This document shows, one piece after another, positions 7,422-54,194 of a DNA stretch of 64,000 nt. A program made the position numbers and the translations under genes. The DNA is from Escherichia coli (GTDB lineage: Bacteria > Pseudomonadota > Gammaproteobacteria > Enterobacterales > Enterobacteriaceae): NCBI RefSeq assembly GCF_030384885.1, contig NZ_CP128613.1. One strand, given 5' to 3'. Under the pieces are notes generated by a model. The model ran no database searches, was not told where the DNA came from, and saw nothing but the letters and a program-made list of their open reading frames with translations. The stretch's first letter is position 1; each line of letters begins with the position of its first letter.

Positions 7422-8252
7422 TCATTCCTGAAGCCTTTCGCGATTGGACCAGGTAAAGCACTCATTACTGGTATAAAGGATAACGAAATCAGCCGACTGC
7501 AATTGTTGCTGATATTGTTCGTTAATGCTGCGGCTGACGATCACATTTTCTGCCTGATGCAAATGTCCAATGGCTGCCGTTGATGGCGCAGGATCGGCGG
7601 CAACGATAACTGTCTTATTCTGGGCATTATCGAAACAGAGCTGCCAGGCAGCGGCAAGTCTGGGAACGTTGATATTTAAAGTACCATCAGCATCCAGATG
7701 GCTGATTTCCAGAATGCTGTGTGTAATGGTGAAATGCTGAAGTGCCTGTTCGAGCGGTTTTCCGGCCAGTGCGGTGTCGGGGCGCAGCATTTCACTGCCA
7801 GCCAGTATTATTTCGCCATCAATAAACTGATTTGCCAGCAGCGCATGTTCGGGATCGTTGGTGATCAGACGCAGTTTTTTCACTTCGCTGAGCAATGGAA
7901 TGATCTTACGGCAGATTGTCCCATGTCCAAGAAATAGCGTGTCACGATCCCGAATTAACCGTGCGCAATGTCGTGCTATTTCCATTTGTTGTGCCAGAGA
8001 CAATGGCGCGATCGGTTGTATCGCTTCTGGTTCAGAGGAGAGTGGTGTCGCAATAGCACCGCCAAATGATCGCTTTAAATATCCCTGTTGCTCCAGATAA
8101 CTGAGATCGCCGCGGATCGTCACGCCAGAGACACCAAGTTGCGCAGATAAGTCATCAACTTTGATTTCACCCTGGGCGGCAACAATTTCTGCAATTTTTA
8201 ATCTGCGTTTCAGTAGGTTAGACGATTTTCTCGGCACGTTAACACTCTTCAT
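7422..8252 (-). CDS. DeoR-family transcriptional regulator
   Basis: 276 aa; N-terminal DeoR-type HTH region (RRLKIAEIVAAQGEIKVDDLSAQLGVSGVTIRGDLSYLEQQGYLKRSFGGA) followed by a DeoR-C sugar-phosphate-binding domain. Confidence 0.85.
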   Translation of the reverse strand: MKSVNVPRKSSNLLKRRLKIAEIVAAQGEIKVDDLSAQLGVSGVTIRGDLSYLEQQGYLKRSFGGAIATPLSSEPEAIQPIAPLSLAQQMEIARHCARLIRDRDTLFLGHGTICRKIIPLLSEVKKLRLITNDPEHALLANQFIDGEIILAGSEMLRPDTALAGKPLEQALQHFTITHSILEISHLDADGTLNINVPRLAAAWQLCFDNAQNKTVIVAADPAPSTAAIGHLHQAENVIVSRSINEQYQQQLQSADFVILYTSNECFTWSNRERLQE

Positions 8253-8420
8253 TGGCCTTTAATGCGTAACACTATAGCCCCTTGTATTTTTCTTTGAAAG
8301 TTACCCTTCAATAATATCGACAATTCGAAAATAAAAGCATAGGGCAAAAATTGCAGCAAAAATAGCTTAATGCATTGAAAATAAATGAATATTTCCATAT
8401 CTGTCCAAAGGCATCATTGG

Positions 8421-9447
<1,027 letters not shown>

Positions 9448-9481
9448 GACGTTGTACCCTACAAAACAATGAGGATTGTTT

Positions 9482-10372
9482 ATGAAAAATATTAAATTAC
9501 TTGGTTCCGCTATGATGGTGAGCCTGGCATTGTTCTCGCAAAGTTCATTGGCAAAAGAGTATAAAATTGGAGCTTCATTATTAACACAGCAACACCCTTT
9601 TTATATCGACCTCGCAAATGCAATGAAAGAAGAGGCGAAAAAAGACAATGTCAATTTAAGTGTCTCTATTGCCAATCAGGATTTAAACAAACAGCTTTCT
9701 GATGTTGAGGATTTTATTACTAAAAAGGTAGATGCCATTATTATCTCTCCAGTCGATTCGAAAGGTGTCCAGGCAGCGATAATTAAAGCCGATAAGGCTG
9801 GTATTCCCGTTATCACCGTTGACGTTGCCGCGGAAGGCGTTCCGGTCGTATCGCATGTTGCGACCGATAATTACGCGGGAGGCGTTGAAGCTGGTAAGTT
9901 AATGGGCAAACTTTTGAATGGTAAAGGTACTGTAGCCATTATTTCTTATCCTGCACTACAATCGGTGGTTGCGCGCGTTGATGGTTTTAAGAAAGGGTTA
10001 AGCGAGACACCGGATATTAAAATTGTTGCTGAACAGCTAGGTATAACGCGGGCTGAAGCGTTAACGACTGCGCAAAACATTATGCAGGCCAACGCCAACC
10101 TGAATGGTCTGTTTGGCTTTGGTGATGATGCGGCGTTGGCAGCGGTTATCGCAGCGAAATCTGCGCATAACGACAACATCAAAATCATTGGTTTTGACGG
10201 CATGAAAGAAGCGCGTGATGCCGTTGACAGTGAAAAAACGTTTGCGGCCGTGATTCGGCAATATCCCTATCAAATGGGTGCTAAAGCCATTGATGCTGCT
10301 GTTGATCACCTCAATGGTAAACCGGTAGAAAAAATGATCCCGGTACAACCCGGCGTTTATACAGGTAAATAA
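9482..10372 (+). CDS. periplasmic sugar-binding protein of ABC transporter (PBP1, CUT2 family)
   Basis: ORF 9476..10372; ATG at 9482 has a GAGGA Shine-Dalgarno; signal peptide MKNIKLLGSAMMVSLALFSQSSLA followed by a ribose-binding-protein-like fold. Confidence 0.85.
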   Translation: MKNIKLLGSAMMVSLALFSQSSLAKEYKIGASLLTQQHPFYIDLANAMKEEAKKDNVNLSVSIANQDLNKQLSDVEDFITKKVDAIIISPVDSKGVQAAIIKADKAGIPVITVDVAAEGVPVVSHVATDNYAGGVEAGKLMGKLLNGKGTVAIISYPALQSVVARVDGFKKGLSETPDIKIVAEQLGITRAEALTTAQNIMQANANLNGLFGFGDDAALAAVIAAKSAHNDNIKIIGFDGMKEARDAVDSEKTFAAVIRQYPYQMGAKAIDAAVDHLNGKPVEKMIPVQPGVYTGK

Positions 10373-10387
10373 TAAACATCTTCATTT

Positions 10388-10418
10388 CACAACAAAACGT
10401 TATCGACGTTTTGTTGTG
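10388..10418 (+). other. inter-cistronic stem-loop between binding-protein and ATPase genes
   Basis: Perfect 12 bp inverted repeat cacaacaaaacg / cgttttgttgtg with a 7 nt loop, 15 bp downstream of the binding-protein stop. Confidence 0.45.
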
Positions 10419-10432
10419 ACACCGAGGTCATT

Positions 10433-11932
10433 ATGACGGATGTTATTCTTGATGTTTCGCATATTGCGAAGACATTTGGTCATGTTCAGGCATTAAAAGA
10501 TATTACCCTCTCTTTACGTAAAGGGCGGGTGCATACTTTATTAGGCGAGAATGGTGCCGGTAAATCGACATTAATGAAAATACTCGCCGGTGTTTATCCG
10601 CCAACCCAGGGAACGATAACACTACGTGGTGAAACCATCACCATTAATAATCCGCAGCATTCTCGCCAGTTAGGGATTGCGATTATTTTTCAGGAACTGA
10701 GCCTGAGTAATAATATGACCGTGGCGGAAAATATTTATGCCAATAATGAACCGCGACGTTTTGGCATTATTAACGATAAAAAAATGCTCGCAGATTGCCA
10801 GAATCTCCTCGCGGAACTGGGCATCCCACTGGATCCGCTGGAAATGGTCGGCAATATGTCGATGGCACATAGGCAACTGGTAGAAATTGCCAAAGCCTTA
10901 AGCTATGCAGCAGATGTCGTGATTATGGATGAACCGACATCTTCGCTAAGTGATAATGAAGCAGAGATTCTGTTTAACATTATTGAGAAATTAAAGCAGC
11001 GAGGTTGTGCGGTTATTTATATCTCTCATCGCATGGATGAAATTATGCGGATTTCAGATGATATTTCGGTGATCCGCGACGGTGAGTATATCGCTACGCA
11101 TGAAAAGAAAAACAGTGATATCCAGCATTTGATTGCCCAAATGGTTGGTCGGGAAATGAAAAATATTTGGCCAGCACGTCTTGGGGAAAAGCCGGATGAA
11201 AATGTTCCTGCAAAACTGGAAGTAAAAAACCTTTCCCATCCTTCGCTTTTTAAAGAGGTCAGTTTCGCTGTGCGTCCGGGGGAAGTCCTCGGATTTTTTG
11301 GCCTGGTGGGGGCCGGGCGTTCCGATGTGATGAAGGCGCTATTTGGCCTCGTTTCGTATCACGGGACTGTGTTGATTGATGGTAAGGAAGTCAGGATCGC
11401 TAATCCCAAACAGGCTATTGATCATGGCATTGCTTTTGTGACCGAAAACCGCAAGGAAGAAGGGTTAGTGCTGATGCACGACGTCAATATGAACACGCAC
11501 CATGTGGCGTTTCAATATAACGCTTCGCGGATGGGACTCATCAATCACCGACAAGAAGAGGCGAAGACGCTGCAATCTATTGCCAGAATGAACACTAAAG
11601 TGAGTTCAGTACATCAGGCAGTGGGAGCGCTGAGCGGCGGTAATCAACAGAAAATCGTGTTATCCAAGTGGCTGGAGAAAACTCCGCGTATTTTATTGCT
11701 CGATGAGCCAACGCGCGGAGTGGATGTCGGCGCAAAATTTGAAATCTATAACGTGATACGTCAACTGGCTGCGGCAGGGACAGCAATTATTCTGGTGTCC
11801 TCTGAACTGCCAGAGGTCATGGCACTTAGCGATCGTCTGGTGGTAATGCGTAATAAAACGATTGCCGATATTTATTCATGTGAAAATTTAACGCAGACAC
11901 AGGTAATGACCGCTGCAACAGGAGTACGTTAA
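10433..11932 (+). CDS. sugar ABC transporter ATP-binding protein (duplicated NBD, RbsA/AraG-like)
   Basis: 499 aa; two Walker A motifs (GENGAGKST, GLVGAGRS), ABC signature LSGGNQQK and Walker B LLLDEPT. Confidence 0.9.
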   Translation: MTDVILDVSHIAKTFGHVQALKDITLSLRKGRVHTLLGENGAGKSTLMKILAGVYPPTQGTITLRGETITINNPQHSRQLGIAIIFQELSLSNNMTVAENIYANNEPRRFGIINDKKMLADCQNLLAELGIPLDPLEMVGNMSMAHRQLVEIAKALSYAADVVIMDEPTSSLSDNEAEILFNIIEKLKQRGCAVIYISHRMDEIMRISDDISVIRDGEYIATHEKKNSDIQHLIAQMVGREMKNIWPARLGEKPDENVPAKLEVKNLSHPSLFKEVSFAVRPGEVLGFFGLVGAGRSDVMKALFGLVSYHGTVLIDGKEVRIANPKQAIDHGIAFVTENRKEEGLVLMHDVNMNTHHVAFQYNASRMGLINHRQEEAKTLQSIARMNTKVSSVHQAVGALSGGNQQKIVLSKWLEKTPRILLLDEPTRGVDVGAKFEIYNVIRQLAAAGTAIILVSSELPEVMALSDRLVVMRNKTIADIYSCENLTQTQVMTAATGVR

Positions 11933-53007: not shown

Positions 53008-53027
53008 AACTTAGTTCGTTTTAAAGA

Positions 53028-53055
53028 TTCTGCAGACACTGTCTGCAGAATTCGA
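53028..53055. repeat. palindromic unit (core CAGACA-NN-TGTCTG) downstream of nanQ
   Basis: aattctgcagacactgtctgcagaatt, a near-perfect 27 bp palindrome; same family as three copies inside yhcG. Confidence 0.55.
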
Positions 53056-53066
53056 AACCGCTGAAA

Positions 53067-54194
53067 TTAACGGCGTCTATAGCCTTCCTCTAGCACCGCC
53101 TGTGTTCGAACGAGTTCATCCGCGAGTCGTTTTTCATCAGGTAGTTGCATCTTATATTCGCTTGCCAGAACGGTGTTAGGCAAACCTGCCAGCGCATAAT
53201 GCGCTTCTCCGGCTCCTTTCTCTGCACAGAGAACCAGACCGATGGGCGGATTTTCATCCGGTAGCGTCCAGTGCTCTTTGGCGTAGTTGAGATACATATT
53301 CATCTGTCCGGCATCGCTATAGCTGAATTTGCCCACTTTTAGATCGGCGATTAGCAGGCAGCGTAAACGGCGGTGGAAAAACAGCAGATCGACACGAAAC
53401 CAGTTGTCATCAATGCGTAACCTTCGCTGTCGACCAACAAAGGCAAAATCATCCCCAAGTTCCAGCATGAAATCCATCAGGTGATTGATCAGCGCCTCCT
53501 CAAAATCAGATTCTGAGTATTCATCTTTCAACTCCAGAAATTCGAGCACAAAGGGATCGCGTATCGCCTGTTGCGGAAGAATATGCATCTCGGCAGGAGC
53601 GTGTTGTTGCAGCATGGCTGATTTGTCATGTGACAGTAGTGTTCGCTCATAAAATTGGGTCGCAATTTGCCGTTCTAGCTGGCGAACAGACCAGCCACAG
53701 CGGAGCGTCTCTTTTTCATAAAAGCTGCGGGCGTCAGCGTTTTTAACGGAAAGTAGACGGACGTAGGTGGACCAGGGCAGGGGGAACGATTTGGCAGACA
53801 GCGTCTGCCAAATCTTTGCCGATGGGAATTCTGCAGACGGTGTCTGCGGAATTCCCAATGGTGTTAATTCGCCAGACACTGTCTGGCGAATTTCAACATG
53901 TTGAAAAAAGAGGTAAAAAAGCCTCATTTGGCGTAAGTTTTTTGCAGAGAACCCACGCTTATACCTTAGACTTAAATCCTTTGATAGTCGCTTGATTAGC
54001 TGCGCACCATACGCAGCTCTGGCCTCGCCACCTTGTTCAAATTCGACAATTCGTCGGCCAATTTCCCAGTATGTCGCGGTCATCAGCGCGTTAACACTAC
54101 GTACCGTTTCCGTCCTGGCGCTATCGACCAGATGAATAATGCCGTCGTGGATTTGCTGGTAGCCTGCTGTGGTTCCTTCTGAGAGCGATTCCAT
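53067..54194 (-). CDS. yhcG: DUF1016 / PD-(D/E)xK nuclease-superfamily protein YhcG
   Basis: 375 aa; family and K-12 length assigned from recall; contains an internal triplicated peptide motif encoded by palindromic DNA units. Confidence 0.75.
   Translation of the reverse strand: MESLSEGTTAGYQQIHDGIIHLVDSARTETVRSVNALMTATYWEIGRRIVEFEQGGEARAAYGAQLIKRLSKDLSLRYKRGFSAKNLRQMRLFYLFFQHVEIRQTVSGELTPLGIPQTPSAEFPSAKIWQTLSAKSFPLPWSTYVRLLSVKNADARSFYEKETLRCGWSVRQLERQIATQFYERTLLSHDKSAMLQQHAPAEMHILPQQAIRDPFVLEFLELKDEYSESDFEEALINHLMDFMLELGDDFAFVGRQRRLRIDDNWFRVDLLFFHRRLRCLLIADLKVGKFSYSDAGQMNMYLNYAKEHWTLPDENPPIGLVLCAEKGAGEAHYALAGLPNTVLASEYKMQLPDEKRLADELVRTQAVLEEGYRRR
53790..53897. repeat. three tandem palindromic units embedded in frame in yhcG
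   Basis: tttggcagacagcgtctgccaaa (53790-53812), gggaattctgcagacggtgtctgcggaattccc (53824-53856) and aattcgccagacactgtctggcgaatt (53867-53893); they encode the repeats IRQTVSGE / IPQTPSAEF / IWQTLSAK. Confidence 0.55.

Follow-up and report, generated by a model that had tools for sequence, protein, structure and literature searches.

The spacer between the binding-protein (SBP) gene and the ATPase gene of a D-tagatose ABC transporter operon in Escherichia coli was found to encode a stable 15-bp RNA hairpin, and comparison of homologous spacers indicated that this hairpin is under selection in the sense-strand mRNA. From its structure, the selection on its sense strand, and the recurrence of hairpins at the same junction in other genera, we infer an mRNA element that skews expression of the SBP relative to the ATPase, by blocking 3′ exonucleases and probably by occluding the ribosome site of the ATPase gene, and we regard this reading as rather likely. 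The window analyzed here is the whole stretch of 64,000 nucleotides taken from contig NZ_CP128613.1 (assembly GCF_030384885.1), and all coordinates refer to it. Its sequence shares 99.9 to 100% identity with that of E. coli strain 2013C-4282.

The hairpin lies in the SBP-ATPase spacer of the D-tagatose cluster

The binding-protein and ATPase genes flanking the hairpin had been called correctly in the original prediction; they encode a Peripla_BP_4-family SBP upstream and a double-ABC ATPase downstream. The genes and stops concerned are as follows:

7422-8252, minus strand: DeoR-family regulator gene (annotation)
9476..10372, plus strand: SBP gene of the D-tagatose ABC transporter, 298 amino acids (open reading frame; Pfam PF13407, 1.7e-54; RefSeq WP_074501159.1)
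10370..10375, plus strand: tandem in-frame stops TAA TAA at the end of the SBP gene (direct sequence reading)
10433..11932, plus strand: double-ABC ATPase gene, 499 amino acids (open reading frame, domain matches, RefSeq)

In RefSeq, the SBP gene starts at an ATG two codons downstream, at 9482. The operon is held by an eight-gene accessory island between yhdT/panF and accC/accB; the plus-strand order is tagatose-bisphosphate aldolase, SBP, ATPase, permease, a tagatose-kinase-like PfkB kinase, and a DUF4432/aldose-epimerase-like protein, and the minus strand carries a sugar kinase and the DeoR-family regulator. This operon is the published D-tagatose utilization cluster, which was described in E. 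coli Nissle 1917 and transferred from it into other strains, in a paper that mentions neither the spacer nor the hairpin (PMC9720028). Of 5426 complete E. coli genomes, 1420 carried the island; each of these 1420 contained the hairpin exactly once, and the hairpin was found in none of the other 4006.

E. coli and metagenomes also contain another allele of the cluster, which has diverged deeply (loci L002, from E. coli E69, and L116). Compared with window positions 9476-11932, its DNA is ~89 to 92% identical and its protein ~98% identical, and its spacer differs from that of the window only in the loop and at two bases of the 5′ flank.

The element cacaacaaaacg-ttatcga-cgttttgttgtg, reported earlier at 10388-10418, is an exact match to the sequence, and its placement between the SBP stop and the ATPase start was borne out, since it lies in the 60-nt gap that separates the TAA at 10370-10372 from the ATG at 10433. 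It had been described as a 12-bp stem with a 7-nt loop; all 12 pairs were recovered, but the helix proved longer than stated, as the RNA fold reaches 15 bp and leaves a 3-nt loop. The helix is extended outward by U10387-A10419 (T10387-A10419 in DNA) and inward, inside the former 7-nt loop, by U10400-A10406 and U10401·G10405, giving the following parts:

10387..10401, plus strand: 5′ arm of the 15-bp helix, UCACAACAAAACGUU (sequence, folds, alignment)
10402..10404, plus strand: triloop AUC (fold; variable among relatives)
10405..10419, plus strand: 3′ arm of the 15-bp helix, GACGUUUUGUUGUGA (sequence, folds, alignment)

The hairpin is A-U-rich, starts 15 nt after the SBP stop, and ends 5 nt before the Shine-Dalgarno sequence of the ATPase gene. 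A folding-energy calculation, which had been proposed as a check on the hairpin, gave an RNA minimum free energy (MFE) of −16.5 kcal/mol for the 31-mer (z = −5.1), and none of 200 shuffles folded as well. For the whole 60-nt spacer, the MFE was −21.6 kcal/mol, with z values of −6.2, −5.35, and −5.47 in separate shuffle sets. Perfect hairpins, defined by at least 12 bp and loops of 3 to 10 nt, were found at 5 centers in the window, compared with a mean of 0.03 and a maximum of 1 in 100 dinucleotide-preserving shuffles of the window. The hairpin is real and unlikely to have arisen by chance.

The hairpin was also considered as a REP/BIME element, a G-C-rich imperfect palindrome of ~35 nt with many copies per genome, and this was rejected: its arms are A-U-rich, there is one site per island-bearing genome, and the window holds no further copy. 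Matches to the arm itself are no more frequent in the window than chance predicts (7 at ≤2 mismatches versus 7.9 expected), and Rfam 15 gave no match overlapping 10373-10432, even at E ≤ 10. Elsewhere in the window, four copies of a 25- to 31-bp palindrome of the type (A)ATTCTGCAGACAnTGTCTGCAGAAT(T) were noted at 53027-53051 and 53782-53892, one of them just 3′ of yhcG, which encodes a PDDEXK nuclease-domain protein on the minus strand, and three in tandem inside the 5′ coding region of yhcG.

Pairing in sense-strand RNA is under selection

Seven distinct versions of the spacer were aligned, comprising 4 E. coli alleles and those of Superficieibacter electus, Enterobacter sp. ENT03, and Enterobacter sp. 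BIGb0383; they were collected from one genome-collection scan with the SBP, which yielded four non-E. coli species, from protein look-ups, and from the E. coli alleles. The spacer allele of the window occurs in ~154 genomes, and the major allele, with the loop UUAUUGG, in ~1260. Across the 7 versions, 99% of cells in the 15-bp helix were paired, whereas in slid controls, in which the partner was moved by 1 to 3 columns, only 36 to 52% of cells were. The pairs at which changes were seen are listed below:

10387:10419: U-A in six sequences, A-U in ENT03
10400:10406: U-A, U·G, C-G
10401:10405: U·G, C-G, A-U
One core pair, alignment columns 25:37: A-U; G·U in ENT03

Compensatory changes were present at three terminal pairs of the helix, and covariation was limited to these. 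The helix covariation score was 0.119, compared with 0.060 in shuffles, and was reached by 1 of 500, in a set of 7 sequences of which 4 are from E. coli. Since the G·U and U·G states are pairs in plus-strand RNA only, and the opposite strand or DNA would have C·A mismatches in their place, they fix both the molecule and the strand. The loop is free to vary among relatives, being AUC, AUU, GAA, GAG, or the tetraloop CGCC. Variable columns amounted to 1 of 24 in the core versus 25 of 36 in the rest of the spacer (Fisher p = 2e-7), and the same taxa differ at 92 to 94% of the four-fold degenerate sites of the flanking genes. These alignments indicate that the hairpin has been maintained by selection on the sense-strand mRNA.

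The same alignment bears on the possibility that the site is recognized as double-stranded DNA, as a palindromic operator for the DeoR-family repressor of the cluster or for another dimeric protein, for example a distal looping operator. DeoR-type repressors use distant auxiliary operators, and the 12-nt half-sites are near-invariant while synonymous sites are saturated, which would suit such a role. However, the changes seen are exactly those that keep plus-strand RNA paired, and among them are U·G and G·U states, which a DNA palindrome would have as mismatches; the half-sites are separated by 6 nt in one species but by 7 nt elsewhere; no other copy occurs in any E. coli genome; and the divergent promoter at 8253-8592 has different repeats (TTTCAAAGTGAAA, TTTCAAAATGAAA, and TTCATTTTGTAAG) and no copy of the arm. 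We consider an operator at this site very unlikely. A CRP site was likewise rejected, as inspection showed TCACA...TGTGA in the wrong order, 24 nt apart. In the divergent promoter between the DeoR-family regulator and aldolase genes (8420-8570), the repeats TTTCATTTTCAAAGTGAAA, CTTTCAAAATGAAAGTGAAG, and TTCATTTTGTAAGGTGAA form direct and inverted pairs of the TTTCAAA(A/G)TGAAA type, and these are probably the operators of the repressor.

The 12-bp core is near-invariant in sequence across lineages with saturated synonymous sites. More change in the core would be expected under pairing-only selection, because G·U intermediates are available, and the invariance exceeds what pairing alone requires and may point outside the model proposed below. 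No second copy, related operator, or other clue to it was found. By contrast, the homologous hairpin of Yersinia enterocolitica versus that of Raoultella differs substantially. Since the core is identical save for one G·U-compatible change, and covariation is only terminal, sequence-specific recognition can be proposed, in which the hairpin could serve as a site for a dedicated RNA-binding protein or for a base-pairing RNA controlling the ratio of SBP to pump; such an RNA would read one arm once the helix opens. We hold this proposal to be unlikely.

Metagenomes were scanned for the pattern CAACAAARCG-N3-9-CGTTTTGTTG, which yielded 74 loci. Only L116 and L135 were related to the tagatose spacer, and the rest were unrelated hairpins sharing the 10-nt arm; the scan therefore contributed no new covariation variants. 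Several sediment or marine contigs among these loci (L115, L118, L125, L154, L094, L100, and L158) have longer palindromes around the same 10-nt arm, e.g., accagaCAACAAAACGCTGACGCGTTTTGTTGtctggt; these look like a separate repeat family, unrelated to the tagatose locus. In L135 (metagenome contig OLRF01021290.1, 1084-1152), ~70 nt are identical to the spacer of the major E. coli allele; they begin at the second TAA, include the hairpin and the Shine-Dalgarno sequence, and extend up to ATGACGGAT. This copy is in reverse orientation inside an RCC1-repeat/CotH-like open reading frame of an unrelated organism, and removal of the 70 nt gives back a continuous 645-amino-acid open reading frame. The copy may be an assembly chimera or a real insertion.

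The hairpin is unlikely to act as a terminator

Partial termination of transcription had been offered in the original prediction as an alternative action of the hairpin, and this part of the claim did not hold. A leaky intrinsic terminator, past which only a fraction of RNA polymerases would continue into the ATPase gene, fits a stable hairpin in a transcribed spacer whose 3′ arm is itself U-rich (CGUUUUGUUGUG). Nevertheless, the tail that follows the stem, ACACCGAGGUCAUU, contains no U tract (nor does the 3′ tail written as ACACCGAGGUC), the stem is A-U-rich and not G-C-rich, and the site was not flagged by a consensus terminator scan. The relatives have kept the stem and never acquired a U tail. 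In published qRT-PCR data, which give fold-induction per gene and not ratios between genes, the aldolase, SBP, and ATPase genes were induced >1000-fold, and the last three genes >40-fold (PMC9720028). As the ATPase gene shares the >1000-fold induction of the SBP gene, transcription clearly reads through the hairpin, and the visible drop in induction comes after the ATPase gene and not at the hairpin. On these grounds, a leaky terminator is highly improbable.

A terminator-like hairpin followed by a T run (GTCCGGGGGAAGTCCTCGGATTTTTTGG) was observed inside the ATPase gene at 11274-11304. It was tried as the polarity point behind the induction drop after the ATPase gene and rejected, as it is allele specific and its structure is not conserved in orthologues; it is a by-product of the codons for PGEVLGFFG.

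Other operons carry hairpins at the same junction

We examined orthologous operons whose spacers, of 51 to 207 nt, are unrelated to that of the window. These came from Trabulsiella (two species), Klebsiella spallanzanii, Serratia sp., Budvicia, two Yersinia types, Sodalis, and two metagenome lineages. Almost all of these spacers start with a strong hairpin of their own just after the SBP stop, as was seen in Trabulsiella, K. spallanzanii, Serratia, Budvicia, both Yersinia types, and both metagenome lineages. Compared with dinucleotide shuffles, z was ≤ −2 in 12 of 14 spacers of orthologous operons. The two with no significant structure were those of Raoultella (z = −1.5) and of the G-C-rich Sodalis (z = +0.15), and the junction hairpin is therefore not obligatory.

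The sugar ABC operons of E. coli K-12 (araFGH, mglBAC, xylFGH, ytfQRT, and alsBAC) resemble the tagatose operon in their SBP-then-ATPase order, in their ATPase and permease families, and in having a spacer of 60 to 139 nt with a hairpin or a REP-like palindrome. Hairpins were found at the araF-araG, mglB-mglA, and xylF-xylG junctions, and palindromes recognized by eye as REP-like at ytfQ-ytfR and alsB-alsA. The MFE z values of ara, mgl, and als ranged from −2.4 to −4.7; those of xyl and ytf, at about −1.3 to −1.4, were not significant versus shuffles. Unlike the tagatose spacer, with which they share no sequence similarity, these spacers have stems that are G-C-rich (ara, mgl, and xyl) or, by eye, REP-like (ytf and als). 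The strongest argument that position, and not sequence, matters is this independent origin of hairpins at one junction.

The ATPase start region is predicted to be closed

Outside the 15-bp helix, the segments listed below are involved in predicted pairing around the ATPase start:

10378..10382, plus strand: AUCUU in the 5′ flank, predicted partner of the ATPase Shine-Dalgarno sequence (folds)
10424..10428, plus strand: GAGG(U), the ATPase Shine-Dalgarno sequence, 5 nt upstream of its AUG (sequence, folds)
10438..10444, plus strand: GGAUGUU within ATPase codons 2-4, alternative partner of AACAUCU at 10375-10381 (MFE folds, four E. coli alleles, 120-nt context)

The consensus fold predicted pairing of 10378-10382 with 10424-10428 in 7 of 7 sequences. 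When folded in a 120-nt context, the Shine-Dalgarno sequence was paired with a probability of 0.87 to 1.0 in the three non-E. coli sequences and of 0.2 to 0.46 in the E. coli alleles. The fold preferred by the E. coli alleles instead joins AACAUCU (10375-10381) to GGAUGUU (10438-10444) and adds a GUCA/UGAC mini-helix over the AUG. In these alleles, the final G of the Shine-Dalgarno sequence and the UG of the start codon are paired with probabilities of 0.6 to 0.98. In the MFE structure, this alternative pairing encloses the Shine-Dalgarno sequence and the AUG in a multiloop. The ATPase initiation region is thus predicted to be closed under either outer pairing, and, on these thermodynamic predictions, the hairpin element would probably occlude the ribosome-binding site of the ATPase gene.

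The outer helix is weak in E. coli, having 5 bp of which two are G·U, and contributes about −4 to −5 kcal/mol. The UCUU of its 5′ strand is invariant in 7 of 7 spacer versions, with variable neighbors, and GAGG is invariant as well. Of the outer pairs, 4 of 7 never vary and none covaries, and the two outermost exist only in Superficieibacter and Enterobacter ENT03. Covariation is missing because the 3′ partner is constrained as a Shine-Dalgarno sequence anyway, and in view of this we put forward Shine-Dalgarno occlusion as a hypothesis. The stretch AACAUCUU at 10374-10381, which we take to be complementary to 8 nt of the Spot 42 sRNA, was considered as a pairing site for that RNA and dropped because its AAC part is not conserved in other genera.

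These features raise the question of whether the element could be mainly translational, keeping the ATPase ribosome-binding site closed and permitting low translation only when it is coupled to that of the SBP, with mRNA stability secondary. Such a mechanism is documented in natural and synthetic operons (PMC4538824), the Shine-Dalgarno sequence or the AUG is paired in the predicted structures of 7 of 7 versions, UCUU and GAGG do not change, and a ribosome halted at the TAA is estimated to cover the 5′ partner. On the other hand, the outer helix lacks covariation and is worth so little energy, the Shine-Dalgarno sequence of the E. coli alleles is paired only at the low probabilities given above in the longer context, and a 15-bp helix is not required just to juxtapose two 5-nt segments. 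Furthermore, the nonhomologous hairpins of other genera lie far from the ATPase Shine-Dalgarno sequence, in spacers of 92 to 207 nt. A mainly translational role would, by these models, be possible but doubtful.

Proposed function of the hairpin

We favor the combined action, in which 3′ protection and ribosome-site occlusion would together uncouple expression of the upstream aldolase and SBP genes from that of the downstream membrane-complex genes, giving an excess of binding protein. For protection, an endonuclease cut or Rho termination would occur inside the poorly translated ATPase gene, and 3′-to-5′ trimming by PNPase or RNase II would then halt at the hairpin, leaving a stable, translatable aldolase-SBP mRNA. 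In line with a protective stem-loop, a stable sense-strand stem-loop stands immediately 3′ of the SBP cistron, and its structure is conserved over its loop. For occlusion, the base of the hairpin would juxtapose AUCUU with the ATPase Shine-Dalgarno sequence GAGGU (in the E. coli alleles, AACAUCU with codons 2-4), making ATPase initiation by free ribosomes inefficient. The outer pairing would be opened by a ribosome that terminates at the SBP stop, with a footprint estimated to reach ~10382, and limited coupled initiation would then be possible. The two actions would reinforce each other, as poor ATPase initiation favors downstream cleavage or Rho termination.

The original prediction had read the hairpin as a stabilizer of the upstream message that yields an excess of binding protein. 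This reading was upheld in substance by the sense-strand selection, the recurrence at the junction, and the precedents considered below, while the mechanism given here is our proposal for how it would work.

The outer pairing also allows the spacer to be drawn as a rod of ~22 bp (15 bp plus an outer helix of 5 to 7 bp, with an internal loop) that RNase III might process, the cut separating the aldolase-SBP mRNA. In phage T7 early mRNAs, the upstream product of RNase III cutting ends in a protective hairpin. The topology, in which a 4x4 internal loop separates the upper from the lower stem, would agree with such a site, as would the lower stem of 7 bp reached in Superficieibacter and Enterobacter ENT03; yet the lower stem of E. 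coli is short and weak, and the nonhomologous junction hairpins of other genera are simple stem-loops. We regard RNase III processing as quite unlikely, and retain combined protection and occlusion as the working model.

Under this model, the tagatose hairpin is an ordinary example of hairpins raising the binding protein over the membrane pump. ABC transporter operons have long been known to have a stable RNA structure after the binding-protein gene. The tagatose hairpin is one more such case, well supported by its compensatory changes and by the convergent hairpins of other genera, and it leaves the general understanding unchanged. Because the 60-nt spacer probably sets transporter stoichiometry, re-engineering of the D-tagatose cluster should keep it or tune it deliberately.

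Comparison with known systems

A close precedent is malE-malF, in which malE is stabilized by a 3′ structure in the spacer, according to Newbury et al. 1987 as cited in PMC5927463. That paper (Dar & Sorek 2018, PMC5927463) describes four more E. coli ABC operons, in each of which the binding-protein gene was the stabilized segment. The tagatose operon is like malE-malF in placing a stable stem-loop immediately downstream of the binding-protein cistron of a polycistronic ABC transporter mRNA, in needing an excess of SBP, and in the expected action, a block to 3′-to-5′ exonucleases after a downstream cut. They differ in that the mal structure consists of G-C-rich REP sequences with hundreds of genomic copies, whereas the tagatose hairpin is unique, A-U-rich, and single copy. 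Moreover, stabilization was measured for mal, and for the tagatose hairpin we infer it.

Ribosome-assisted unfolding of intergenic structures is an established coupling mechanism in natural and synthetic operons, with atpA as an example (PMC4538824). The predicted tagatose pairing resembles the coupling structures of Tian & Salis 2015 in covering the downstream Shine-Dalgarno sequence or start, with its 5′ strand near the upstream stop (PMC4538824). Their model differs, however, in that a structure counts as coupling only if it overlaps the coding sequence or the stop of the upstream gene (PMC4538824), and the 5′ strand of the tagatose outer pairing, unlike theirs, begins 6 nt after the SBP stop. 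Any coupling in the tagatose operon would therefore rely on the ribosome footprint.

The galE hairpin of galETKM is alike in lying near a cistron junction and in having no U tract (PMC11925234, PMC9239205). This 8-bp hairpin, which has no terminator function, suffices to stop exonucleases and defines the stable galE mRNA (PMC11925234), and the galE 3′ ends arise by downstream Rho-dependent termination or RNase E cleavage, provoked by failed translation initiation of the next gene (PMC11925234, PMC9239205). The same logic, in which failed initiation on the next gene leads to a trimmed and protected upstream message, would link the occluded ATPase start to 3′ protection in the tagatose operon. 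The gal hairpin differs in having 8 bp and a 4-nt loop and in lying ~120 nt inside galT, whereas the tagatose hairpin has 15 bp, lies wholly in the spacer, and abuts the next Shine-Dalgarno sequence; its helix is far stronger than the 8-bp hairpin that protects galE.
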